A stretch of 64,000 nt of DNA from Bdellovibrionota bacterium (GCA_036140815.1 JAYZXX010000009.1:2648-66647), one strand, 5' to 3'; shown: positions 7,796 through 27,865, counted from the first letter of the stretch. A program made the numbers and translations. Notes: generated by a model not told the origin, from the letters alone.

Positions 7796-8965
7796 ATGGA
7801 AAAAAAGAACAAAAACATCATATTTTATACGTCGCTTATATTTTCAGCAATCGCTGTTTATTGTCTTTACTATTTGGCTGAACAACATTGGGCTCTAAAA
7901 TTAGGAGCTGCCGCCACAGAAAGTATGTGTAACTTAAATGCTACTTTTAACTGTGACGCCGTTAGTGCCAGTCGGTTTTCAAGTTTTTTCAATATACCCA
8001 TCGCTCTATGGGGCGCGGTCAGCTTCGGGATCTATTTAGTGGCTTTCAGTATGGGGGTAAGCGCTAACATCCCTCGTTTACTTAGACACAGCTTTTATCT
8101 AAGTAACTTCTTCATCGTAATGAGTATCATCATGGCAGTTATTTCATTAGCATTCATGAACACCTATTGTCTGTTTTGCATTGCTACCTATATATGTTCT
8201 GTCGTGATATTTTTCTGTACAAAAAGCTTAAACGAAGATGGCTACAGTAAGTTTTCTGACGACATTAAAGATATGTTTGGTCCAGCCAAGTCCTTTTTGG
8301 CCATTTACCTTCTAATTCCAGTACTAAGCTTCGTTTTTCAAGACATGGCTCACGGACAAAGCCTTAAAGCGATGAGTGATGCCGTTGCAGCTGCTAAGCT
8401 GGATTATCAAAACTCACGAACTTATCAATTTGAAGTAGAACCAAGTTACAAATTTGGCGCAAGTGACGCTGAAGCAAAAGTGATCGTTCACGAATTTGCC
8501 GATTTCCTATGTCCACATTGTAAATTTGCACTTCCAACTCTAAAGGCCTTTGTAAGCTCAAAGCCCGATGTACAATTGCGATTCTATGCTTTTCCACTTA
8601 GTGCTGAATGTAATGCAGCCATCGGAGGCTCAGGCCCAGATCGTTGCCGCTTAGCTCGAGTGTCTTACTGTGCTGAAAAAGAATTTTCAAAAGGAAAAGA
8701 GGTTACCACTGAGCTATTCGCCCAACAAGGCTATTACAGAAGTTCCAATGTAATTTCAGAAATCGCTACCAAATTTGCTATTGATGAAAAAAAACTGAGT
8801 GAATGTGAAGCTGATAAATCTGCCAATGAAGCCATATTAGCTCAAGCCAAGCTCGGTCAAGATGCCGGCATCCGTGGTACACCAGCTATTTTCATTAATG
8901 GAAAAAAATTGAGCTATGGAGCAAGGCTGCCAATATTAAATGGCGTCTACGAAATTGCAAAATAA
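7796..8965 (+). CDS. VKOR-DsbA fusion: vitamin K epoxide reductase-family membrane domain fused to a thioredoxin-fold thiol:disulfide oxidoreductase
   Basis: The loop cysteine pair CNLNATFNC and the TM CxxC (CLFC) sit in a multi-TM N-terminal half, as in VKOR. The C-terminal half carries FADFLCPHCKF (CPHC, DsbA-like). Confidence 0.8.
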   Translation: MEKKNKNIIFYTSLIFSAIAVYCLYYLAEQHWALKLGAAATESMCNLNATFNCDAVSASRFSSFFNIPIALWGAVSFGIYLVAFSMGVSANIPRLLRHSFYLSNFFIVMSIIMAVISLAFMNTYCLFCIATYICSVVIFFCTKSLNEDGYSKFSDDIKDMFGPAKSFLAIYLLIPVLSFVFQDMAHGQSLKAMSDAVAAAKLDYQNSRTYQFEVEPSYKFGASDAEAKVIVHEFADFLCPHCKFALPTLKAFVSSKPDVQLRFYAFPLSAECNAAIGGSGPDRCRLARVSYCAEKEFSKGKEVTTELFAQQGYYRSSNVISEIATKFAIDEKKLSECEADKSANEAILAQAKLGQDAGIRGTPAIFINGKKLSYGARLPILNGVYEIAK

Positions 8966-13761: not shown

Positions 13762-16443
13762 ATGAAATTAAAAAAATATTTCTTTAAATTAATTGAGTTA
13801 ACCGCCTTTAAACTTGGCATTATTCTTACCATTGCCTTTTACTTAGTATCCAATCGATATTACAGAATCAAAGACGCTAGCTTAATGAAATATCAAGATG
13901 ATTTAAGCGTACATGCTATTCTCGAAAATTTTCATCAAAGATCAGTAGATCTAAAACTCCTTGCTCGTGGTCCTGAAGAGAGAGATTCAAAATTAGCCAT
14001 ATTGGCCATCGATGAAAAATCGGTAGAAAAATTTGGACGATGGCCATGGTCACGAACAATTATAGCTGAAGCCATAGAAAAAATCTTTGAACATGATGCT
14101 GCTGTTTTAGCTTTTGATGTCATCTTTTCAGAGCCTGATAACAACCAAGCCATCCGCTCCTTGAACAAACTTTCAGAACAAACCCAATTAAGCGATGAGC
14201 AAAAGCTATTTGTTGAAAAAGAATTGATCGAAGCAAATTCTGACATCCGCTTAGCTGAAGCCATTGAAAAGTACTCTGATCGAATCATCATGGGAACCTA
14301 TTTCGACAACCTTCTTTTCAATCTAGACACCTACCAAGAAAAGTGCGCACAAATCGCTTTTTCTAAAACCAAAGAATCGGACTTTTTGACACAAGAAGAC
14401 ATTCCCATGGCAGCTTTAGATCAAGTGGAACTTGATCTCCCCGAAGGCATCTATGATTTTGTAGACGAAAAATTAGATGACATCACTGCAAACTTAGACG
14501 AAGAAAAAAGCTTTGAAAAAGATAGCGATCGCTTACAAGCCATACGCCAAAGTCATCTTGAGTATTGTGCAAAATGGCTATACGAAGGAGAAGACCAATA
14601 CTTAGCAGAATTCAAAGAAATATGGGCAGAAATTGCAGAAGAAGATGAAATTGAAAAAAGCTATGAAGAATGGAAAAACGACCTACTGCAAAACACCGCG
14701 CAGAACCTAGTAAACATGAGTGGTCGCCTTTGGATGAACATTCCAATGATATCTGAAAACGCTAAACACACTGCTTATTTTAACGCCTTTCAAGACCAGG
14801 ATGGGACCATTCGAAAAAATCATTTGGTCTATCGATATGGCAACACCTATATGCCTGCCATGGGACTCAAAGCGGTAATGGTGGCTAGGCGTAATGGGGT
14901 TCTAATTAATGTGGAAAGAAATCCATACAACTACTTTTTGAAAGGCGTGAAAGAAATCACTTTTACTGACCAAGAAGGCTCCCCCACTACAAACATCCCG
15001 GTGGACTTTGAAGGAGCTTTACCGATTAACTATTCGGGTCCTCAGAAAATGTTTCCATATTTAAGTATCACAGAACTTTTTAACGGAAAAGATACTATGG
15101 TCATCGAACAAAGAAAAGAGGGACGAGTCAAAGAAATAGAAGTAAACAAAGCTGAATTCATAAAAGACCGTATCTTTTTGGTAGGTGCTACCGCAACAGG
15201 GATTTACGATTTACGTGTAACTCCATTTGAAGAAAACTTCCCAGGACCAGAAACTCACGTAAATATCATGGACAACCTTCTTCGTGGTGATTTCTTGAAA
15301 ACCCACCAGGATGAGCCTCCTTATATGTTAGGATTCATCTTATTCGCAGGTTTACTCTTAAGCTTTGCCATTAGTCATCTTGGGGCTCTTTCAGGTTTAC
15401 TAGTATCTTTTTTCTTAATTGCTGGAATGATATATCTAGACTTCAGCCTACTCTTTTCACAGGGCATTGTGGTTAGCATAGTTTTACCTCTTTTACTTTT
15501 TAGTTTTCTCTATGTGAGCCTAACTTTCTTTAAGTACTTTACAGAGGAAAAAAAGAAGAAAGAATTAAAAGGAACTTTCCAAAAATACGTATCACCTGCC
15601 ATTGTGGACGAAGTATTAAAAGACCCTGAAAACATTCAATTAGGAGGCCGCAAAGAACGAATGACCGTATTATTCAGTGATATTCGTGGCTTCACTACCA
15701 TCTCTGAACAATTAGATCCGTCCGCATTAAGTGATCTTTTAAACAGCTACCTAACGCCGATGACAGATTTAGTTTTTGCCAACAAAGGTACTCTGGATAA
15801 ATACATGGGTGATGCAGTTATGGCTTTCTTCGGAGCTCCTATCAGTTATCCAAACCACGCAAGCATGGGCGTTAAATGTGCTCTTGAAATGCTAGAAAAG
15901 CTCAGGGAGCTCCAAGCGCAATACAAAGAACAAGGCCTTCCCGATATTGATGTGGGAATTGGTTTAAATACTGGAGATATGTCAGTAGGAAATATGGGAA
16001 GTGAAACCGTAAGATCCTATACTGTAATGGGTGACGCTGTAAACTTAGGCTCTCGCCTTGAAGGTATTAACAAACAATATGGAACTCGAATTATAATTTC
16101 TGAATTCACTTATCAAGATATTATCGATTCAAAACTGTATGTTTGTAGAGAAATAGATTGGGTGAAAGTAAAAGGAAAACTAGAACCAGTAAAAATCTAT
16201 GAAGTGGTTAATTTTCAGTCGAAAATTAGTAACGAGAAACTTCAATGTGTTAACAAATTCAATCAAGCTTTTGAACTTTACCACAAGAAAAAGTTCTCCG
16301 AGGCTTTAGAAGTCTTAAAAGAAGCATTGAGAATTGACCCAGAAGATGGGCCAAGTTTGCTTTATGTAGAAAGGACAGAAAACTACCTACAAAGCCCACC
16401 GCCTGAGGATTGGGATGGTGTCTTCACAATGACAACAAAATAA
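13762..16443 (+). CDS. CHASE2-sensor class III adenylate/guanylate cyclase with C-terminal TPR
   Basis: CHASE2 signature: LAILAIDEKSVEKFGRWPWSR. A TM cluster follows. Cyclase motifs are ERMTVLFSDIRGFTTISE, KYMGDAVMAFFGAP and VMGDAVNLGSRLE. The tail is TPR-like (FSEALEVLKEALRIDPEDG). Confidence 0.9.
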   Translation: MKLKKYFFKLIELTAFKLGIILTIAFYLVSNRYYRIKDASLMKYQDDLSVHAILENFHQRSVDLKLLARGPEERDSKLAILAIDEKSVEKFGRWPWSRTIIAEAIEKIFEHDAAVLAFDVIFSEPDNNQAIRSLNKLSEQTQLSDEQKLFVEKELIEANSDIRLAEAIEKYSDRIIMGTYFDNLLFNLDTYQEKCAQIAFSKTKESDFLTQEDIPMAALDQVELDLPEGIYDFVDEKLDDITANLDEEKSFEKDSDRLQAIRQSHLEYCAKWLYEGEDQYLAEFKEIWAEIAEEDEIEKSYEEWKNDLLQNTAQNLVNMSGRLWMNIPMISENAKHTAYFNAFQDQDGTIRKNHLVYRYGNTYMPAMGLKAVMVARRNGVLINVERNPYNYFLKGVKEITFTDQEGSPTTNIPVDFEGALPINYSGPQKMFPYLSITELFNGKDTMVIEQRKEGRVKEIEVNKAEFIKDRIFLVGATATGIYDLRVTPFEENFPGPETHVNIMDNLLRGDFLKTHQDEPPYMLGFILFAGLLLSFAISHLGALSGLLVSFFLIAGMIYLDFSLLFSQGIVVSIVLPLLLFSFLYVSLTFFKYFTEEKKKKELKGTFQKYVSPAIVDEVLKDPENIQLGGRKERMTVLFSDIRGFTTISEQLDPSALSDLLNSYLTPMTDLVFANKGTLDKYMGDAVMAFFGAPISYPNHASMGVKCALEMLEKLRELQAQYKEQGLPDIDVGIGLNTGDMSVGNMGSETVRSYTVMGDAVNLGSRLEGINKQYGTRIIISEFTYQDIIDSKLYVCREIDWVKVKGKLEPVKIYEVVNFQSKISNEKLQCVNKFNQAFELYHKKKFSEALEVLKEALRIDPEDGPSLLYVERTENYLQSPPPEDWDGVFTMTTK

Positions 16444-16542
16444 TGCAATATTAATAAGCAAAGACCTGAGCAAATGCTTAGCCAAAGCCCTTTACGGGCA
16501 CAAATGCTTTACAGAGCCAACAGCCTGAGCCAAAATAGAATC

Positions 16543-17310
16543 ATGAATATTCGTGCCATTGGAGCCAGCGGAGGAGTGTCTGCTGGTTATAAGACAACAT
16601 GTTACCTCATCGGTGAAGATCTACTACTAGATTGTGGAGCGGCCGCGACCGGTTTAAATTTAGAAGAACAAAAAAACATAACAGACATTCTAATCACTCA
16701 CCCACATTTAGATCACATCAAAGACATTGCTTTTTTAATTGATAACACTTTTAATCCAGCACGAAAAAAACTTAGATTACATTCAAGCTCTGAAATCTTG
16801 AGTGATATCCAAGAAAACTTTTTTAATAATAAAATTTGGCCTGATTTTTCTAAAATACCCAGCCAAAAAAACGTAAAAGGCTCAGAGCTTTTAGTCTATG
16901 AAGCATTTAAAGGAAAAAAGGCCTTAAACCAATATCAAGTGGAAATGGCGGATGTTAATCACCCAGGAAATGCCGTGGGTTTCCTTCTAAGTAGCCAGGA
17001 AGCAGATGTTTTATTCACGGGTGACAGCTCTGTGACGGATCAAATTTGGCAACTAGGAAAAAACGCAAAGAACCTAAAAGCGGTTTTCACTGAAATTAGT
17101 TTTCCAAACAATATGGAACAACTTGCAGTGGATAGTGGACACTACACGATTAATTTACTATTGGAAGATATCAAAAAACTAGGATTCGAAACACCTGTAT
17201 ACATAAATCACTTCAAACCTCAGTTTTTTCAAGCCCTGGTTGAAGAGTTTCACAAACTTGCTCCAGAGAACTGGATACTCCTTCATCAAAACCATGAAAT
17301 CAGTTTGTAG
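16543..17310 (+). CDS. Class-II 3',5'-cyclic-nucleotide phosphodiesterase-like MBL-fold hydrolase
   Basis: The N-terminus MNIRAIGASGGVSAGYKTTCYLIGEDLLLDCGAA and the motif ILITHPHLDHIKDIAFLI match the class-II PDE signature H-x-H-L-D-H. It starts 100 nt after the cyclase stop. The track start at 16474 is probably too long. Confidence 0.6.
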   Translation: MNIRAIGASGGVSAGYKTTCYLIGEDLLLDCGAAATGLNLEEQKNITDILITHPHLDHIKDIAFLIDNTFNPARKKLRLHSSSEILSDIQENFFNNKIWPDFSKIPSQKNVKGSELLVYEAFKGKKALNQYQVEMADVNHPGNAVGFLLSSQEADVLFTGDSSVTDQIWQLGKNAKNLKAVFTEISFPNNMEQLAVDSGHYTINLLLEDIKKLGFETPVYINHFKPQFFQALVEEFHKLAPENWILLHQNHEISL

Positions 17311-19651: not shown

Positions 19652-19702
19652 GCCTTCGTGCTGCTCATTGACTTTTCGCTTCGCTTTTCAGAAAATAATA
19701 GC

Positions 19703-20110
19703 ATGAAGAAAATGATTCTAATCTTTTGTTGTCTAGTATTTTCAAGCCTAAACTTACAGGCTCAAACCGAACAAGCCAACTCACAAAAAAGAACCAGAGA
19801 ATTTATCATGAGCTGCACTTACGGAGTATTAACTGGTACATTAATTGGTGCAGCCTCACTAGCCTTTTCAGATAGCCCCGGTGATAACCTACACCGCATT
19901 GCCAGAGGCGCATCCCTTGGTCTTTACGCTGGAATCGCACTCGGCTACTACATAATGAACTTAGATGAAAATCCTGAAGTAATCGATCCACTTCAATACC
20001 CTGCTGGCGATATCCCACCGCCTCTTGAAGGTAACTTTCAAGTTTTACCCAAATTTGAACAAGCTAAACTCGATGGGATTGAATTGAAATTTCAATTAAT
20101 GAAATTCTAA
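19703..20110 (+). CDS. Small secreted/membrane protein with glycine-zipper segment
   Basis: Signal peptide MKKMILIFCCLVFSSLNLQA. Glycine-zipper segments GVLTGTLIGAASLAF and GASLGLYAGIALGYY. Ends in ...LMKF. It begins 7 nt after lptD. Confidence 0.45.
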   Translation: MKKMILIFCCLVFSSLNLQAQTEQANSQKRTREFIMSCTYGVLTGTLIGAASLAFSDSPGDNLHRIARGASLGLYAGIALGYYIMNLDENPEVIDPLQYPAGDIPPPLEGNFQVLPKFEQAKLDGIELKFQLMKF

Positions 20111-20793
20111 TTTCTCAGTTCAACATACTTCTTCGCCTGAGATATCACTTCAACAGAGGCTGTGATTTTAGAGTTCAATACAGCAACTATTTTTTGTTTC
20201 TCAACCTGACTACGATTTGAATTTTGAACCTTTCTAATTTCATATTTTAAATCTTCAATTTGCCCTGGCGCGTGTTTAACTACGTATCTAGCGATTCTAG
20301 CAAAACGAGGTGTTAGCGCGTAAAATCCTTCCGAGAATCCTGTGACATTTACCTCAATGATATGCCTAGAATTCTTGACTATTGAATATAGCCTATTCAC
20401 CTCTGTTAACAAATATTGAGGCTTCCCAAGTCTTAAAATATCTTGCTTAATTCTTGCGATTTGATTCAAAGATCTAGTATAATCCTCCATTGACCTTTCA
20501 TCGATCAATTCTAGGAGCAAAAAACTAAATTTCATCTTTATATATTGTTCATCAAAGTGACAATTGCTAGCCTCTTTACGACACTGACTAAGCATCTGAT
20601 GCACATTTTTCTCATATCTGTCCATTAATTTTAATTTGTGCTTATTCCAGCTATATCTTTTATTAGACCACTCCTCTAGCTGTTTAATATCCTCTAAAAC
20701 AGAACTCTCATCCATTGCCGACAAGCTCAAAGAGAATATCATTAAAGAAAAAATAGAAATTATAATTTTAAAAACCGTCTTAGATTGTTTCAT
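20107..20793 (-). CDS. Secreted hypothetical protein
   Basis: ATG at 20793 is preceded by GAGGGAGGG. Signal peptide MKQSKTVFKIIISIFSLMIFSLSLSA. Confidence 0.5.
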   Translation of the reverse strand: MKQSKTVFKIIISIFSLMIFSLSLSAMDESSVLEDIKQLEEWSNKRYSWNKHKLKLMDRYEKNVHQMLSQCRKEASNCHFDEQYIKMKFSFLLLELIDERSMEDYTRSLNQIARIKQDILRLGKPQYLLTEVNRLYSIVKNSRHIIEVNVTGFSEGFYALTPRFARIARYVVKHAPGQIEDLKYEIRKVQNSNRSQVEKQKIVAVLNSKITASVEVISQAKKYVELRN

Positions 20794-20935
20794 TTGCCCT
20801 CCCTCAAATAGAAAACTCCCCTCTAAGTAAAGCAAATAAGGTGCCATCCCTTCTTCAAATATTTTTGATCTGAGCCAAATTAAATTTTACATAGAAAATA
20901 AAAAAATGGCTAAAGGCCTTAAATTACGTATTTTT

Positions 20936-20972
20936 TAGAAAAAGACAGTTTTAAAAGCCTTAGACACTGTCT
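20936..20972 (-). terminator. Rho-independent terminator closing the rSAM operon
   Basis: The 7-bp stem AGACAGT (20943-20949) pairs with ACTGTCT (20966-20972). On the minus strand it is followed by TTTTTCT. Confidence 0.5.
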
Positions 20973-21048: not shown

Positions 21049-22458
21049 TTAAAAAGTTATTTGAGAGTCCAATAGCTCAGAGTATTCATCAATTGTATCC
21101 ACATCCGAATAGACTCGCTTGGATTCCGATAGCCTACCTTGTTTTTTGAGAGCTGCAGCAAAACGTTCACCAGTCTCATTCACTGAATAAGGAATTGAAG
21201 TCCACAAGCTTTGACCTAGAACTTTCCTACCCGCAAACAAATAGTAGCCACCATCACTAGCATATCCAATATGGAAATCGGAACCTTTTCTCAAGGCGTG
21301 AATTGCTTCCTCTAAATCTGAAATGCTAATTTGCGGAGTATCGGCGCCAAGAAAAATAATTTGATCAAATTCAGTCTTTAATTGTTTGTACATATGGTGC
21401 AGACGATCCCCTAAGGCTCCGGCACTTTGTAGTTTCACAGGAAAACTACTCCATAGTGAGTGTTTTAGAGCCTGTTCTTCTGCGACTGCCCAAAAAGGAA
21501 AAATACCCAAGCTTTTTTGGGCATCTAAAAGTGTGGATTCAATTTTTTTACAGCTCAATACATGAAAAGATTCGGCTTTCAGTTTTCCAAGGCCTTTTGC
21601 CAGACGAGTCTTTAAAGGACTAAGACCGGGAGTTTTTACAAAAACAACTACCGCTGTTTTCTCATCAGTCTCAACAGCTTCCTTTAAAACTTCCTGCTCA
21701 TTGCCTTGTTCGAAATCAACTAACTCAGCACCCTTTAATAAAAATTGCCCCATGTATGGTATGGCTTGCTTGAATCCAAGAAAAATCCTTTGAAAACATA
21801 GCTTCAACCAGTTACGACCATAGGCCCTTCCCGCAGTAGAAATGCTGTGTGAAAAAGACTTCCACTTTCCACCAGATAAAACAAAACGCCAAACAAAATC
21901 ATGATCTTCGCCATAAGCTAGATTTTCTAAGAAACTTCCCAGCTCAATAAAGCTAGTTCGCGGAATCAAAAGAGCTTGATCCCCATAAATCATCCCTAAC
22001 AGCTTACAACGTAAATTAGCCCAAAAGCTAATAAACTTAAAATGATTTCCATGACTACTAAAACCCAATGGAAAGTACCAAGCCGTATTGACTTGCACTT
22101 TTTTATTTAACAATTGATATAGCTCTTGCCAATTTTTTCCTGATATACGTGTATCCACATGAACAAACCACAAGTAAGAGGAGTTTTTGCTCAAACTAGC
22201 CGCTGCATTCATTTGAATTGCTCTGCCCGGACCAGCCTGAACATATTGAAATCGATTTCCTGCTTTTTCTAAAATTTGATTTAAACTATAAGTAATCTCT
22301 TCACTCATCTCCATATGAAATTTTTTAAAACTTTTCGGACTTGATAAAATTAATTCAAATGGAAAAGGACAATTTCTAAGATCATAGAAGAGGGAACTCA
22401 AATAGCCCTCTTCTTCTGGCAAAAAAGGAACGATAATACTGATCGAACTCGTTAACAT
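21049..22458 (-). CDS. Fusion protein: GT2-type 'transferase 2, rSAM/selenodomain-associated' (N-terminal) plus DUF2064 'transferase 1, rSAM/selenodomain-associated' (C-terminal)
   Basis: N-terminal half: ISIIVPFLPEEEG, QAGPGRAIQMNAAAS and YLWFVHVDTRI, a GT2 layout matching my recollection of TIGR04283. C-terminal half: AVVVFVKTPGLSPLKTRLAKGLG, IIFLGADTPQISISDLEEA, ASDGGYYLFAG and WTSIPYSVNET, matching DUF2064/TIGR04282, a CofC/MobA-like nucleotidyltransferase fold. Confidence 0.75.
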   Translation of the reverse strand: MLTSSISIIVPFLPEEEGYLSSLFYDLRNCPFPFELILSSPKSFKKFHMEMSEEITYSLNQILEKAGNRFQYVQAGPGRAIQMNAAASLSKNSSYLWFVHVDTRISGKNWQELYQLLNKKVQVNTAWYFPLGFSSHGNHFKFISFWANLRCKLLGMIYGDQALLIPRTSFIELGSFLENLAYGEDHDFVWRFVLSGGKWKSFSHSISTAGRAYGRNWLKLCFQRIFLGFKQAIPYMGQFLLKGAELVDFEQGNEQEVLKEAVETDEKTAVVVFVKTPGLSPLKTRLAKGLGKLKAESFHVLSCKKIESTLLDAQKSLGIFPFWAVAEEQALKHSLWSSFPVKLQSAGALGDRLHHMYKQLKTEFDQIIFLGADTPQISISDLEEAIHALRKGSDFHIGYASDGGYYLFAGRKVLGQSLWTSIPYSVNETGERFAAALKKQGRLSESKRVYSDVDTIDEYSELLDSQITF

Positions 22459-22459
22459 A

Positions 22460-23299
22460 TTATCTACTCAATACTTCAAATAACTTTCTTTTCTCTTCGG
22501 ACATGGCCTCAATTGGAGTCATCACACTAGATTTTAAAATCTGGCGAAAATCAGACTGCGACTCATCCCACTCCAGTTCAAAAAGTTTTAACAATAATTT
22601 TTTAGCTCGACTGATACTTTGACCAAATTGCTGCAACACCTGCTCAACGCTGACAAATTCTTTTTCGCTTCTCCAACAATCGTAGTCCGTTGCAACAGCC
22701 ATGGTGCAATAAGCCATTTGCGCTTCTTTTGCTAAAAAGGCCTCTGGGGTATTGGTCATACCAACTAAGTCAGCGCCCCATTGACGAAATAGATGACTTT
22801 CCGCCTGAGTTCCCAACCTAGGACCTTCCACACAAATATAAGTTTTAGCCTCATGAATCCTTTCACCAGCAAGTTCGGCAGCTTTTGCTATTTGCTTCGC
22901 TAACAAACGACAGGTAGGATTCGCCGTTGAAATATGAGCAGCAATGCCATCACCAAAAAAACTAGCGTCTCTATTTTTGGTAAAATCAATGTATTGATCC
23001 ACAATAGAAAAGTCTCCTGGGGCAATTTCATCTCGTAAACTTCCCACCGCTGAAATAGAAACAATACTGGTAACACCAACACTTTTTAAAGAATAAATAT
23101 TGGCTTTGAAATTGATTTCACTTGGAAGGTATTTATGACCACTTCCATGCCTAGGCAGAAAAGCAATTTTCTTCCCCTTATATTCTCCAATAACAACTGG
23201 ACTACTAGCTTTACCAAATGGGGTATCCACCCATTTCTCTTGTTTATTTTCGATTTCGTCCATGGAATAAAAACCAGAACCGCCGATGACACCTAACAT
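22460..23299 (-). CDS. mtnP: S-methyl-5'-thioadenosine phosphorylase family protein (MTAP/MtnP-type nucleoside phosphorylase)
   Basis: MLGVIGGSGFY...VDTPFGKASSPVVIGEYKGKKIAFLPRHGSGHKYLPSEINFKANIYSLKSVGVTSIVSISAVGSLRDEIAPGDFSIVDQYIDFT...GMTNTPEAFLAKEAQMAYCTMAVATDYDCW is near-canonical MTAP. Confidence 0.9.
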   Translation of the reverse strand: MLGVIGGSGFYSMDEIENKQEKWVDTPFGKASSPVVIGEYKGKKIAFLPRHGSGHKYLPSEINFKANIYSLKSVGVTSIVSISAVGSLRDEIAPGDFSIVDQYIDFTKNRDASFFGDGIAAHISTANPTCRLLAKQIAKAAELAGERIHEAKTYICVEGPRLGTQAESHLFRQWGADLVGMTNTPEAFLAKEAQMAYCTMAVATDYDCWRSEKEFVSVEQVLQQFGQSISRAKKLLLKLFELEWDESQSDFRQILKSSVMTPIEAMSEEKRKLFEVLSR

Positions 23300-23313
23300 A
23301 TTAATCCCCTAAT

Positions 23314-24390
23314 TTAAGTAGTTGCTCCACCGCAAGAGCTTCCTGCACCTGCAGTACAACCATAACAATGATTCTCAGTAGCAAATTCTTTAAAATCAAA
23401 CTCCGCTAGACTGCGAATGTTCCAAATGCTTTTATCTGCTCCCGATTGTGGAATCTCTAGCATTTGATTAAAATCACAATCATAAATTTTTCCATCATAA
23501 CCGATAGAAACCAGATCTCGACACATCAGATTTTTAGCCGCCATTGGATTAAAGTTATCCACCAAAACCTGCATATACTCTTCCAGCTTACCTTGTTTTT
23601 CTAAATCGTCTAAAAACCTTTTGATTGGCATATTTGTAATAGTAAACAACTCATTGAATTCAACATCGATTTCGTCTTTCAAGCGCTTCTTATACTCTTG
23701 TTGAAGTGTGGCTTGATTTGGAGGTAAGAAAGCACCACCTGGATTGTAAACTAAATCTAACTTTAAGCCCGTTCCCTCTTTGCCGTAGCCTAAACCATTT
23801 AAAATCCTTAAAGCCTCAACTGATTTATTAAAAACCCCTCGCCCTCTTTGCGCATCCACATTCTCTTTAGAGTAACAAGGAAGAGAGGCGACGATGTGTA
23901 AACGTTGGTCTCTGAAAAACAGAGCCGTGTCTTCTTGCCCTGGTTCAAACAGAATCGTAAGGTTACAACGAACAATCACCTCTTTCCCTAACTTTCTTAA
24001 TGATTTTACAAAATATCGAAAATTAGGATTCATCTCTGGAGCACCGCCAGTAATATCTATTAACTTGATTGCAGGATTATTTTCAACCAACTCGATCAAT
24101 CTCTCTACAGTGTTCATAGACATATTTTCAGTACGAGTAGGACTGGATTCTACATGGCAATGATGGCAAGCCTGATTACACAGCTTACCAATATTAACTT
24201 GCAAAGTGCTAACGCGATTTCGCTTTAAGTTTAATGAATTCTCACGCATGGTTTCAGAAAAGTTTTTGAAGTTTTTAATCTTTTCTTTTCCCATTTGCTC
24301 GCGAATTTGTTTTTTTGTGTTTTCTTTTTCCACAGCGAGGACTCCCCTATAGAGATAAGTGCGATTTGGATGGATTCTATTACAAAGCAT
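23314..24390 (-). CDS. arsS: ArsS-type radical SAM/Cys-rich domain protein (TIGR04167-like; Cys rather than Sec form)
   Basis: LQVNIGKLCNQACHHCHV carries the CxxxCxxC cluster. ITGGAPEMNPNF is also present. The C-terminal Cys-rich tail is NHCYGCTAGAGSSCGGATT. The start is uncertain: maximal ORF at 24390, GTG at 24333 with GGGGAG 8 nt upstream, or ATG at 24294. Confidence 0.8.
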   Translation of the reverse strand: MLCNRIHPNRTYLYRGVLAVEKENTKKQIREQMGKEKIKNFKNFSETMRENSLNLKRNRVSTLQVNIGKLCNQACHHCHVESSPTRTENMSMNTVERLIELVENNPAIKLIDITGGAPEMNPNFRYFVKSLRKLGKEVIVRCNLTILFEPGQEDTALFFRDQRLHIVASLPCYSKENVDAQRGRGVFNKSVEALRILNGLGYGKEGTGLKLDLVYNPGGAFLPPNQATLQQEYKKRLKDEIDVEFNELFTITNMPIKRFLDDLEKQGKLEEYMQVLVDNFNPMAAKNLMCRDLVSIGYDGKIYDCDFNQMLEIPQSGADKSIWNIRSLAEFDFKEFATENHCYGCTAGAGSSCGGATT

Positions 24391-24395
24391 TGCAT

Positions 24396-24438
24396 AAAAA
24401 AAAGCTAGGAGAAATCAAAAGATTTCCTCTAGCTTTTT
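24396..24438 (-). terminator. Rho-independent terminator after the MCP gene, immediately upstream of the rSAM operon
   Basis: The stem AGCTAGGAGAAATC (24403-24416) pairs with GATTTCCTCTAGCT (24421-24434), with a 2-nt internal mismatch and an AAAA loop. It is flanked by an A8 run, which reads as T8 on the minus strand. Confidence 0.75.
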
Positions 24439-24463: not shown

Positions 24464-27085
24464 TTATGCCGCTTTGTTTATTTTTTGATCATGTTGTTCA
24501 ATTGTGAAGTACTCCACCAGGCTATTTAATTTTTCAGCAAGACTCTCTAAGCTTTGTGCTGCCATTTTAGTTTCAGCAGCTCCCTCGTCAGTAGTTCGCG
24601 CTAGGCTTAGCACTTCTGTTAGGTTTTCTCTTATCACTTGTACGGATTGATTTACCCGACTGATACTGTTACTCATCTCAGCAGTCACCGAACTTTGCTC
24701 CTCCACGGCACTGGCAATGGATGAAGAGGCCTCGTCAATGTTTCCAACCAAAGTAGCACTTTTGTTTAAGGCGTCTGCCACTGCTGAGGTACTATTTTGG
24801 ATAAACTCAATTTTTGTACGAATTTCTTCAGTAGCTGTACTGGTTTGACCTGCTAACTCTTTCACCTCGCTCGCCACTACGGCAAATCCCTTACCAGCTT
24901 CACCCGCTCTAGCGGCCTCGATGGTTGCATTGAGCGCCAATAAATTTGTCTGCGAAGAAATAGAACTAATTATTTTAACAAACTCGGCAATTTCTTCGGA
25001 GCGTTTAATCAGTTCATTTAATTTCTTTTGAGCTTCGTTGGACTCTACCACCGCTTCATTTGCCAATTTAGCTGCGCTCACCGTACTACGGTTTACGTCC
25101 TTAAAGCTCTCTTGTAGCTGATCTGAACTAATATTAACTTCGTTAATTGCTGTGGCAACGGACTCCGCCGAATCATTTACCAAAGTCGTTTTATCCACAG
25201 TTAGTTTTGAATTAGCTCCCATTTGCCCTGCATATTCATTTAAGTTACTGGAAGAAGAGCCCAAGATCCCAGCGCTTTTTTTGATGTTTTGCAACCTTGA
25301 CTTCAGATCATCAAAAAATGACTTTAATCCCTCACCAACTTTACCAATAGCGTCACTCCCAGCCACAGTCACTTCGCTGCTTAGATCACCCGATTTTGAG
25401 GCTTCAACCACTTGTAAAATTTGGTCAACCTTAAATTGCAGTTCTTTCGCATTTTTAATCTGCTCCATCCCCAGTCTTTCTGCTTCCACTTTGGCAATGT
25501 CAGCTTCTTTGGCCGATTTTTCAGCATTTACCAAAGCTAACTGAGCCTCTTTCGCTGCTTGCTCCGCTTTCTCCAAAGCTTCTTTTTCTCTTTCTTTTTG
25601 TCTCTTTACATCATTCCAATCCACTCGATCGGCAGAAAAAACACCGCGTAGAGTCTCTAGGGTATTTTGTAATGAGCTAAGCATTTGCCCAACTTCATCT
25701 TTAGATTTTGCCACCACATCCGATTGAAGGCTTCCATTTGCCAGAGCTTCAATTGCTCTTGCAACACTTCGTATTGGACCGGAGATTTGCCCGGAGATAA
25801 AAATACTTAATAGGACGACCGCCAAAATGGAAAGTCCCATAACCAAAACATTGTCTTTTATCATTGAACCAACAGAAGAAAGAGCTTCACTAGCATTAAT
25901 TTCAGAGACCAAAACCCATTTCAAAGCATTAAATTCAAACTTAGTGTAGGCACCGATCACATCTTCACCCAGATGATTCTTGTATTCTGCAACCCCAGTA
26001 TGGCCCGCCAAAGAAGATTGAACCCCTTGCGAATTTACTTCGACACTTAACATAGGCGAGTACTGTGCCTTCGCAACTTTTATATCACTGCTTGACTCAT
26101 CAATTCTCTTTAAATAAGCCTCAAGATCATTTTCAAAAAAGCGATCCGTGGAACGCATTTTTTTATCAGCCCCAACCAAATACACCTGACCCGTTTTGCC
26201 GTAACCAGTCTTTTCCCACTCACGATCATTGGTCATTATTTCATTCAATTGATCTATGTTAAGTTGAAAAACTAGAGTTGCTATATTCTTACCATCTACA
26301 AAAATTGGTGAAGCCGCGAACATAGATGGGTAATCATAAGAAGATGGAAAACGCTCCACTTCCGAAAAAAACACTTCCTTAGAATCATCTGCGGATTTGG
26401 CTTGTTCCCAAACTTTATACAAGCCTGTTTTCTCATAAAGGTTGCCTTTAATTTTTTTTGCGAAGTCCGCCTCTTTAAAAACAGAATACAAAACACGATT
26501 ATCTGAATTTCCAATGATATAAATGTCATTATAGCCAAACTGTTTTTGATAGTTTTTGAAGAAGCCATGATAATAGGCGTGTTCATCAGAATAACTACTA
26601 CCGTCATCCGCTTTCATAAGATCACTGCGTATCTGACTTTGGTTATTTACTCTATAATGGTATTGTAAATAGTCAGTATAAAGATCATTGCCCTCGGATA
26701 ACAATGTACTATCTTTTGTTAAACCGTCATTTGCATCGGCATAAGCCTTAGTGAAGACCTCTTTCATATATTTAATATTTTTTTCTTTTATCTCTTGAAG
26801 ATTTGTATCCTTAAACTCAAACTCATTCATGGAAACACTAAAAGCTCTTGCCGCCTCTTGAGAAACCGAACTATCGGAGATCACTCCTACCTGCTTTTTA
26901 ACGGTGTTTAGAAAGAATTTTAATTCCTGCTTTTTAGAATCTCTAAGCGCCGTCACCTTTTCTTCAGCTGCATTCTCTAATGCTGACTCTGAAATCATAA
27001 CTGAAACAAAAAACAAAACAAACAGTGGCAAAACACTTGCCCCTAAAAAAGATAACATTAACTTCGCTTTTAAATTGAGATTCAT
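24464..27085 (-). CDS. Methyl-accepting chemotaxis protein with large periplasmic (Cache-like) sensor, HAMP domain and extended coiled coil
   Basis: N-terminal TM, roughly 380-aa periplasmic region, second TM ([20 protein letters not shown]), then HAMP. The signalling hairpin is [37 protein letters not shown]. Confidence 0.9.
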
Positions 27086-27178: not shown

Positions 27179-27865
27179 TTATGAACGATATAGACTATCA
27201 AAAAATGGAGACAGCTCCGCATCGACCAAGGTCTTGGATTCTAATAAACCCCAACTTACCCTGGTAAAATACCTAGCTACCAAGTCTTGGTAAATTCGAT
27301 CCGGCCGTTTTTTCGCCCAAGGGTCCTTAAAGTCACTTTGCAATTTTAACTTTTGATAATCTTCTCGACTTGGAACATGAAGGTAAATAAATCGACAAGA
27401 ATAAGAAAGTCGTTCAAAAATCTGTTCAAGATCTTCATCTTGAACATATTGTAAAACCGAATTGCAAATTCCCAAATCAAAAGCCTTTTTAGGTGGAACA
27501 ATTTGAGACAGTTCTTTATGTTGCAGGTCAATGTTCCAGTCTTTCACCCATTTCTGTTTTTGTAATTCGTTAAATGCATATTCAGAACTATCTAAGGCCA
27601 TAACCCTTGACGGTCTAAATAACTTAAGCGTTTCATATAGGAGTTTGCCTTTACCAAAGCCAAAATCAGCGACAGAACTTACGTTTGCCTCTACTAGACT
27701 TAATATTTGAAATAGATAGCGCGCATGACTTTTAGCGTTATAGTCCCCGTCTATCAATTCAGATTTTGCATAAATTTTATCGAAGTAATCTTTTTCCAAA
27801 CTCATAGAAATTAACGCCCTGTGAATATCATTTCTTTTACAAAAAGTATTGAGATAGTCTAGCAT
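27179..27865 (-). CDS. Class I SAM-dependent methyltransferase (substrate unknown)
   Basis: Motif I-like VADFGFGKGKLL. Downstream acidic residue at ALDSS. Motif FDLGICNSVLQYV. Confidence 0.6.
   Translation of the reverse strand: MLDYLNTFCKRNDIHRALISMSLEKDYFDKIYAKSELIDGDYNAKSHARYLFQILSLVEANVSSVADFGFGKGKLLYETLKLFRPSRVMALDSSEYAFNELQKQKWVKDWNIDLQHKELSQIVPPKKAFDLGICNSVLQYVQDEDLEQIFERLSYSCRFIYLHVPSREDYQKLKLQSDFKDPWAKKRPDRIYQDLVARYFTRVSWGLLESKTLVDAELSPFFDSLYRS

Follow-up and report, generated by a model that had tools for sequence, protein, structure and literature searches.

A putative arsenosugar-type operon in a marine Bdellovibrionota genome: an ArsS-family radical SAM gene, a nucleoside phosphorylase gene and a fused transferase gene

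ArsS loci and their phosphorylase and transferase genes

Positions 21,049 to 24,390 of a 64,000-nucleotide stretch of DNA from a Bdellovibrionota bacterium (GCA_036140815.1, JAYZXX010000009.1:2648-66647; the whole 64-kb stretch is called the window here) hold three genes on the minus strand, which encode an ArsS-family enzyme of the radical S-adenosylmethionine (SAM) type, a nucleoside phosphorylase of the MTAP family and a single polypeptide in which a GT2 glycosyltransferase is fused to a DUF2064 domain. We consider it somewhat probable that this operon is a three-gene, chromosomal member of a widespread type of ArsS-centred, arsenosugar-type cluster, found here in a marine metagenome-assembled genome (MAG). 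The full chain that these genes would allow, from ArsS through phosphorolysis and a nucleoside diphosphate (NDP) sugar to transfer by the GT2 domain, is an evenly balanced proposition that could equally well hold or fail. The cluster type is known and widespread and the window adds no new kind of system: ArsS and the two transferase families already bear arsenosugar biosynthesis names in NCBIfam and RefSeq.

The linkage of these genes was surveyed in the best 80 ArsS loci, each from a different species and read with 10-kb flanks (L002-L081), using custom hidden Markov models (HMMs) and NCBIfam checks of representatives. The GT2 HMM was built from stand-alone proteins, and the loci are not phylogenetically independent, so the p-values given here are rough. 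Within 10 kb of ArsS, ArsM was found at 22 of the 80 loci, an AhpD-like TIGR04169 protein at 22, a MerA-like flavin adenine dinucleotide (FAD) oxidoreductase at 20, DUF2064 at 21, GT2 at 17 and a nucleoside phosphorylase at 8, where chance would place a given gene within this distance in approximately 1-2% of genomes. Of the eight loci with a phosphorylase, seven have DUF2064 as well (Fisher p = 2.4e-4, odds ratio 29). The phosphorylases are MTAPs at six of the eight, in Bdellovibrionota, Burkholderiaceae, Methylophilaceae, Rhodospirillales and others. At two Bacteroidota loci (L054 and L066; Parafilimonas and Chryseolinea), a trimeric PNP lies between ArsS and the DUF2064/GT2 genes; it reaches 354 bits against NF006054 (cutoff 218), is 23-24% identical to the MTAP of the window and, in place of the Asn that in human PNP specifies 6-oxopurine bases, has an Asp. 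The occurrence of two unrelated phosphorylase branches in the same operon slot argues that nucleoside phosphorolysis is part of the pathway.

The association of a phosphorylase with ArsS and the transferases, first proposed from the window by itself, recurs on plasmids as well as in the survey. RefSeq plasmids of Burkholderia glumae and B. thailandensis carry arsS and, 7 kb off, genes for a hypothetical protein, MTAP, TIGR04283, TIGR04282 and an FAD oxidoreductase, while a plasmid of Acinetobacter portensis combines arsS, a TVP38/FAD oxidoreductase, DUF547, TIGR04283, TIGR04282, a methyltransferase, a phosphate transporter and mtnP. On a Cupriavidus replicon, arsS and the MTAP gene are 3.6 kb apart, and 49 Burkholderia records belong both to the 54 plasmid records with ArsS and to the 72 with MTAP. 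These plasmid-borne MTAP genes are accessory copies. The A. portensis plasmid is pJNE5-X3_NDM-1 (L097, 129115-145978), whose title names an NDM-1 plasmid, and the whole island lies on a mobilizable plasmid.

Further clusters were found via MTAP homologues. L083 encodes an AhpD-like protein, ArsS, ArsM, an aquaporin, MTAP, GT2 and DUF2064; L089 encodes MTAP, GT2, DUF2064, an unknown gene and a cytidine diphosphate (CDP)-alcohol phosphatidyltransferase; L084 (GT2, DUF2064 and MTAP) and L090 (MTAP and DUF2064) have no ArsS in the stretch read. L084, L089 and L090, and likewise the plasmids of B. thailandensis and B. glumae, keep MTAP and the transferases together with ArsS distant or absent. In L083 (630-10877) and L089 (247-3716) the module is extended by a conserved 220-aa protein with no family match and by the CDP-alcohol phosphatidyltransferase, an extension which might make arsenosugar phospholipids from CDP-diacylglycerol; neither protein has a homologue in the window. 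The cultured Bacteriovorax stolpii (CP030035, L085:8823-12307) has a membrane-anchored, LpxG/YaeI-like metallophosphoesterase, ArsS and a 445-aa GT2/DUF2064 fusion. LpxG-type enzymes cleave nucleotide-diphosphate sugars, and by analogy the B. stolpii enzyme would fit nucleotide-sugar chemistry in the pathway.

Other features of ArsS neighbourhoods were also observed. The AhpD-like TIGR04169 protein and ArsM occur together at one surveyed locus and singly at 21 loci each (odds ratio 0.08, p = 0.004), a near-exclusion which suggests two alternative cluster designs. A fusion of approximately 710 aa, joining a TVP38/DedA-type membrane domain to a MerA-like FAD oxidoreductase, is encoded in L004, L006, L083, L087, L094 and L097, where it adjoins ArsS or MTAP, even without an adjacent ArsS (L087). 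Homologues of ArsM, the AhpD-like TIGR04169 protein and the MerA-like FAD oxidoreductase are all absent from the 64-kb window. An apparent "OlsE-like" neighbour at 49 of the 80 loci was rejected, as the count is meaningless and reflects antisense open reading frames (ORFs) inside GC-rich arsS genes; real OlsE-like genes, on the same strand and non-overlapping, are limited to L003, L005, L007, L041, L042 and L047.

The three genes and the operon boundaries

The three minus-strand ORFs (23314-24390, 22460-23299 and 21049-22458) are separated by 14 nt and 1 nt, in agreement with the packing described in the first-pass annotation, and every motif quoted there was found again: CNQACHHC and the Cys-rich tail CYGCTAGAGSSCGGATT in gene 1, and GRAIQMNAAA...FVHVDT and VFVKTPGLSPLKTRLA...DGGYYLFAG in gene 3. 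Gene 1 scores 444 bits against TIGR04167 (cutoff 300), covering profile positions 2-302 of 303, and contains the Pfam domains Radical_SAM (PF04055) and DUF3641 (PF12345, 184 bits). CNQACHHC and the C-terminal C..C..SSCGG are invariant in an alignment of 25 homologues, with Cys at the selenocysteine (Sec) position of the tail in the window protein. It is approximately 60% identical to ArsS homologues of many phyla, among which the Cys of the cluster and of the C-terminus are all invariant. Judged by its sequence, gene 1 is a member of the ArsS family, as it had been annotated.

The reading frame of gene 1 is open to an ATG at 24390, a codon abutted by the U-run of the upstream terminator, which stops 5 nt before it. 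ArsS homologues are 317-340 aa long, gene calls in the closest relatives give 339 aa, and an AGGGGAG ribosome-binding site (RBS) precedes GTG 24333 with an 8-nt spacer; the start is therefore most likely this GTG, which would give a protein of 339 aa (23314-24333). ArsS is known to adenosylate dimethylarsenite, DMAs(III), to DDMAA (PMC13598754), and for other family members the reaction is reported as transfer of a 5'-deoxyadenosyl group to dimethylarsenite to form 5'-deoxy-5'-dimethylarsinoyl-adenosine. Compared with ArsM/ArsS of Synechocystis sp. PCC 6803 (Xue et al., 2019; Cheng et al., 2021, as cited in later papers), gene 1 is the ArsS equivalog, with the same CxxxCxxC motif and Cys-rich DUF3641. 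The surroundings differ, as the window has no arsM or other ars gene within 64 kb and the neighbours of gene 1 are a phosphorylase and a fused transferase pair, whereas Synechocystis arsS reportedly adjoins arsM in an ars operon.

Gene 2 (22460-23299, 279 aa) follows gene 1 at a TAA-attAGGGGAttaat-ATG junction, with an AGGGGA RBS 7 nt 5' of its ATG. It scores just over the TIGR01694 cutoff (286.5 against 274.85 bits), also matches PF01048 and falls under the cutoffs of narrower MTAP models (NF006492, 311/437; NF005657, 303/453; NF006334, 290/382). In the PDB it is matched best by 4GLF and human MTAP; its GGSG, RHG, GMT and adenine-specific ATDYDCW motifs align with the human enzyme, and the phosphate, ribose and adenine-specific Asp residues are kept in this alignment. 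We take the human residues T18, R60/H61, M196/T197 and D220/D222 to be those that bind phosphate and confer adenine specificity. The residues of gene 2 thus predict an MTAP with a canonical active site, in line with its earlier description as near-canonical.

What the sequence of gene 2 does not convey is cluster membership, because equally similar MTAPs stand alone. Stand-alone enzymes in L082, L086 and L088 are roughly 53-56% identical to gene 2, the identities of ArsS-linked and unlinked MTAPs to it are about equal (roughly 50-56%), and the two kinds are interleaved without a clean split in a neighbour-joining tree of 132 MTAPs. Human F177/S178 are replaced by L/G (PRLGT) in gene 2; PRLGT was rejected as a signature of a specialised MTAP, as it is common to the unlinked L082 enzyme and nearly all of the 120 nearest homologues. 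A second MTAP copy was not found within the 64-kb window.

Gene 3 (21049-22458) begins 1 nt after the stop codon of gene 2 (TAA-t-ATG), a spacing which suggests translational coupling. It encodes a single 469-aa polypeptide that is predicted to consist of a TIGR04283-like GT2 domain, here termed type B (approximately residues 1-245, 21724-22458), an acidic inter-domain linker (approximately residues 246-263, 21670-21723) and a DUF2064/TIGR04282-like domain of nucleotidyltransferase fold (residues approximately 264-469, 21049-21669). A tighter delimitation puts the GT2 domain at approximately residues 5-243 and DUF2064 at approximately residues 264-466. Its AlphaFold model has two confident domains (mean predicted local distance difference test, pLDDT, 88; predicted template modelling score 0.85) and a disordered linker, with pLDDT <50 for residues 252-263. 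The domain matches and the two-domain model both bear out the annotation of gene 3 as a GT2/DUF2064 fusion.

The GT2 half reaches 115.9 bits against TIGR04283, under the cutoff of 182, and so counts as a homologue, though the curated threshold does not admit it to the family. The motifs GR..QMN, F.H.D, GDQ, ED and S.R are invariant across 15 sequences including that of the window, the profile matches solved GT2 enzymes at 6e-18, and among the structures of similar fold are chondroitin and heparosan synthases and TarP. In the window GT2 the VDGGSxD motif is replaced by ELILSSPKS, and VDGGSxD is also missing from L003, L004, L005, L007 and L083. This subtype has a distinct C-terminal YGEDH..VW...WLKTT..KQA.PE region; it may explain the low TIGR04283 score and could mean a different nucleotide donor.

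The DUF2064 half matches PF09837 at 58.9 bits (cutoff 25.8) and TIGR04282 at 115.5 bits, under the cutoff of 134, so that the membership of TIGR04282 and TIGR04283 implied by the first-pass annotation holds as homology but is not borne out by either family threshold. KTR, G.D.P, DGG and D.D are invariant in 29 DUF2064 sequences. Profile matches were obtained to 3CGX (2.7e-49), FbiD (0.007) and CofC (0.016), and Foldseek placed the domain with 3CGX, 2I5E, 6BWG/H and 7P97 (TM on target 0.69-0.77) and with KdsB 2Y6P (0.52-0.54). The modelled fold matches that of CofC/FbiD-type guanylyltransferases, and these profile and fold matches uphold the earlier description of DUF2064 as nucleotidyltransferase-like. 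The likeness to CofC/FbiD and 3-phosphoglycerate guanylyltransferase (2I5E, 6BWG/6BWH, 7P97) covers fold and the KTRL, (G)xDxP and D.D motifs, and their reaction, transfer of GMP onto a phosphorylated substrate, is of the type proposed for DUF2064. However, the profile similarity is marginal (E = 0.007-0.016) and the substrates of these enzymes are three-carbon phospho-acids rather than sugar-1-phosphates.

The GT2/DUF2064 fusion is not special to the window. A full HMMER search of 1.84 billion representatives returned 1663 relatives at E <= 1e-10, and the GT2-DUF2064 order is seen in approximately 54 of the top-scoring clusters and in B. stolpii. The reverse order, DUF2064-GT2, occurs at ArsS loci of Jettenia, Thermoanaerobaculia and Planctomycetota (L010, L024 and L037) and in P0012 and P0013. 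Opposite domain orders imply at least two independent fusion events, and fusion in both orders in different phyla argues that the two transferase activities work together, which strengthens the Rosetta-stone argument that had been made from the window fusion.

The operon was originally described as bounded by terminators on both sides, of which the upstream one is well supported. A hairpin at 24396-24438 (minus strand), with its stem at 24399-24438 and a U-run to 24396 (U8 after the stem), has a folding energy of -19.7 kcal/mol (z = -4.18), and 1 of 200 shuffled sequences was equally stable. It begins 25 nt past the stop codon of a chemoreceptor gene (24464-27085) and is therefore best read as the intrinsic terminator of that gene, forming the upstream boundary of the operon. 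The short leader that follows (24334-24395, minus strand) contains the AGGGGAG RBS at 24342-24348 and a -10-like hexamer, TAGAAT, which may belong to a promoter; a promoter scan found no consensus sigma-70 promoter in the 60-nt leader between the terminator and GTG 24333. No Rfam element was found in the leader, and a riboswitch or known RNA was rejected as the two sub-threshold Rfam matches are the terminator hairpin itself.

The hairpin on the downstream side is weak. Located at 20936-20972 (minus strand), it has a stem of 7-8 bp, a 16-nt loop and a following CUUUUUC, its stability does not exceed that of shuffled sequence (z = -0.65) and the terminator scan did not call it, and its function as a terminator is doubtful. 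In relatives, a convergent small gene closes the downstream side of the operon. In the window, the 940 nt from the operon to the convergent gene (19658-20110) are taken up by a 246-aa ORF (20107-20847, minus strand) whose N-terminus resembles a signal peptide; the equivalent stretch of a near-identical contig has no called gene, and none is called between the fusion and convergent genes in two relatives.

A candidate route and competing explanations

In the proposed route, ArsS would transfer the 5'-deoxyadenosyl group of SAM to dimethylarsenite to form 5'-deoxy-5'-dimethylarsinoyl-adenosine, as shown for the family elsewhere. The MTAP-family enzyme would then use phosphate to release adenine and a 5-substituted alpha-ribose-1-phosphate, the DUF2064 domain would transfer a nucleoside monophosphate from a nucleoside triphosphate to this sugar phosphate to give an NDP-sugar, and the fused GT2 would place the ribosyl group onto an acceptor such as a glycerol derivative, with inversion to a beta-riboside. 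Phosphorolysis of the MTAP type proceeds with inversion at the anomeric centre, nucleotidyl transfer with retention and GT2 catalysis with inversion, and the predicted course would run from beta-nucleoside to alpha-1-phosphate, alpha-NDP-sugar and beta-glycoside. The predicted stereochemistry is consistent with the route because natural arsenosugars are beta-ribofuranosides. Prey, seawater or an arsM at another place in the genome would have to supply the dimethylarsenite; the first-pass description of the route as self-contained was too strong, as the 64-kb window does not encode a source of this compound.

Comparative evidence supports the putative chain drawn in the first-pass annotation, namely the presence of DUF2064 at nearly all phosphorylase loci, the replacement of MTAP by PNP and the two fusion orders. 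Our more specific proposal is tentative, and we would sooner doubt than accept it as a whole: a phosphorylase (MTAP or PNP), DUF2064 and a TIGR04283-type GT2 may constitute the missing late steps of arsenosugar synthesis via NDP-5-deoxy-5-(dimethylarsinoyl)-ribofuranose, an as yet undescribed nucleotide sugar, and with no arsM nearby this organism of a predatory lineage may scavenge methylated arsenic from prey or seawater, or use a non-arsenic substituent. No literature was found that links MTAP or PNP to arsenosugars or that proposes a nucleotide-sugar route.

Several points weigh against the route. No phosphorylase lies within 10 kb at 72 of the 80 ArsS loci, and the B. stolpii operon has a metallophosphoesterase in place of the phosphorylase. 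Both transferase domains score below their NCBIfam cutoffs (115.9 vs 182 and 115.5 vs 134 bits), and the GT2 of the window is of an atypical subtype, without the usual nucleotide-binding VDGGSxD. The MTAP carries no evident sign of specialisation and has close family members without ArsS, and it may be a housekeeping enzyme. The 64-kb window contains no arsM, arsR, arsC or arsenite-efflux gene, and the Pfam content of the neighbouring genes is that of housekeeping and signalling. A biochemical demonstration of any step after ArsS was not found in the literature, NDP-ribofuranose donors are to our knowledge rare, and the analogy with CofC/FbiD would equally allow activation of a three-carbon phospho-acceptor instead of a sugar.

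It is possible, though in our view unlikely, that the MTAP is an ordinary enzyme of methionine and adenine salvage, perhaps also clearing 5'-deoxyadenosine, an inhibitory by-product of radical SAM enzymes, and that the transferases are, as the databases name them, two glycosyltransferases acting on a substrate made otherwise, for example by hydrolytic removal of adenine. Gene 2 belongs to the same family as housekeeping mtnP, with the same catalytic residues and adenine specificity, and none of its residues separates ArsS-linked from unlinked homologues, which are interleaved in the tree at similar identities and include the unlinked L082, L086 and L088. The scarcity of phosphorylases at ArsS loci (8/80) and the coexistence of ArsS and the fusion without MTAP in B. 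stolpii point the same way. However, gene 2 differs from housekeeping mtnP in its coupling to the ArsS/transferase operon, as suggested by the 1-nt gap to the fused gene, and its counterparts elsewhere are borne on plasmids or replaced by a non-orthologous PNP in the equivalent Bacteroidota slot. A phosphorylase is far commoner with DUF2064 than with ArsS alone and is found beside DUF2064 where ArsS is not adjacent, and a housekeeping role is unlikely for the copies that Burkholderia, Acinetobacter and Cupriavidus carry on plasmid islands. As for the clearance of 5'-deoxyadenosine, ArsS builds the adenosyl group into its product and does not release it.

The substituent could also be something other than arsenic, with the ArsS homologue adenosylating a different soft nucleophile, for example one containing selenium or sulfur, on the way to a 5-seleno- or 5-thio-ribosyl conjugate, which we consider improbable. 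The first-pass annotation had raised this from the absence of arsM or ars resistance genes nearby, and the family was originally defined as a Sec/Cys protein, while the near-exclusion of the AhpD-like protein and ArsM hints at two kinds of context. That 58 of the 80 ArsS loci lack arsM within 10 kb can be counted in its favour, but it also makes this the usual state, so that in the window a missing arsM is weak evidence against arsenic; the inference made from it has little support, given that the related L083 has arsM and an aquaporin gene in its operon. Clusters with the same MTAP, type B GT2 and DUF2064 include arsM and aquaporin in L083, or a methyltransferase and a phosphate/arsenate-type transporter on the A. 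portensis plasmid. The score of gene 1 far over the equivalog cutoff, the approximately 60% identity across phyla and the invariant Cys residues speak for one conserved reaction, arsM may be present elsewhere in the genome, and methylated arsenic occurs in seawater. More improbable still, to our minds, is that the MTAP/DUF2064/GT2 module uses 5'-methylthioadenosine to make a 5-methylthio-pentosyl conjugate, with ArsS feeding it occasionally or never. The module occurs without ArsS in the stretches read of L084 and L090, and the MTAP site is canonical for methylthioadenosine. Reportedly, the methylthioxylose of the Mycobacterium tuberculosis lipoarabinomannan cap has been proposed to arise by the same chain, in which MTAP leads to a sugar-1-phosphate, a nucleotide sugar and transfer by a GT2 (MtxS, Rv0539). 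In view of that system, the chain proposed for the window is not conceptually new, but in mycobacteria the substituent is methylthio, the sugar is epimerised to xylose and the acceptor is decaprenyl phosphate. Of this model, synthesis of the lipid-linked methylthioxylose donor by Rv0539 (mtxS) was confirmed in the literature (PMC12088412). Against a methylthio module, the operon begins with arsS, which is kept with the module in all close relatives, the survey transferases were found by their proximity to ArsS, and curators named the families for that association.

Genomic setting and significance

The operon lies in an ordinary stretch of chromosome. The 64-kb window contains relA/spoT, lptD, guanylate kinase, miaA, mutL, rodA/PBP2, pyrD, chemoreceptor and cyclase genes, and a compositional island was rejected, as G+C is even (0.33-0.41 over 15-31 kb) with no sign of recent transfer. 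The closest genome record, the marine MAG Bdellovibrionaceae bacterium UBA6502, has an ArsS 97% identical to that of the window and the same synteny. The three genes and their flanks are retained in relatives whose proteins are 68-78% identical, which argues for vertical inheritance of the operon in this lineage. A methyltransferase gene two genes upstream (27179-27865) was considered as a candidate ArsM and rejected, as it gave weak BioC/TehB-type matches only. Elsewhere in the window, a metallo-beta-lactamase-fold protein (16474-17310) is encoded after a CHASE2-domain adenylate/guanylate cyclase (13762-16443), a cyclase/phosphodiesterase pair that is conserved in relatives; in the near-identical contig, the counterpart of the metallo-beta-lactamase-fold protein matches the Apyc1 (anti-Pycsar) and class II phosphodiesterase families. 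A protein at 7796-8965 (plus strand), unrelated to the operon, unites VKOR and a DsbA-like thioredoxin domain.

Both domains of gene 3 are homologous to the NCBIfam families TIGR04283 and TIGR04282, which share the association with arsS and, on the plasmids cited above, with MTAP; the window differs in that the two are fused, both score below cutoff and the GT2 is without VDGGSxD. The first-pass annotation had treated these families as transferases named from co-occurrence with no assigned chemistry. That view of them as unassigned is outdated, as NCBIfam and RefSeq now call both "arsenosugar biosynthesis glycosyltransferase"; these names rest on co-occurrence, and no paper assigning specific chemistry to TIGR04283 or TIGR04282 was found.

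Arsenosugars are the main organic arsenic species of marine algae and a significant dietary source of arsenic. The enzymes with assigned functions, ArsM and ArsS, reach only 5'-deoxy-5'-dimethylarsinoyl-adenosine, and of its adenine the literature consulted, up to 2026, says only that it "can then be removed". The locus and its relatives provide concrete candidate enzymes for removing the adenine, activating the sugar and transferring the glycosyl group, and cultured, tractable hosts carry related genes, including B. stolpii, B. glumae and B. thailandensis with their plasmids, and A. portensis with its plasmid. The value of the window is that of a minimal example: combined with the survey, it yields a concrete hypothesis, testable in cultured hosts, for the late steps of arsenosugar synthesis, which have so far been open. 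If the route is correct, a function would be assigned to DUF2064 and a new nucleotide sugar would be defined, and many non-photosynthetic bacteria, including a predatory lineage, would be makers of arsenosugar-type compounds.

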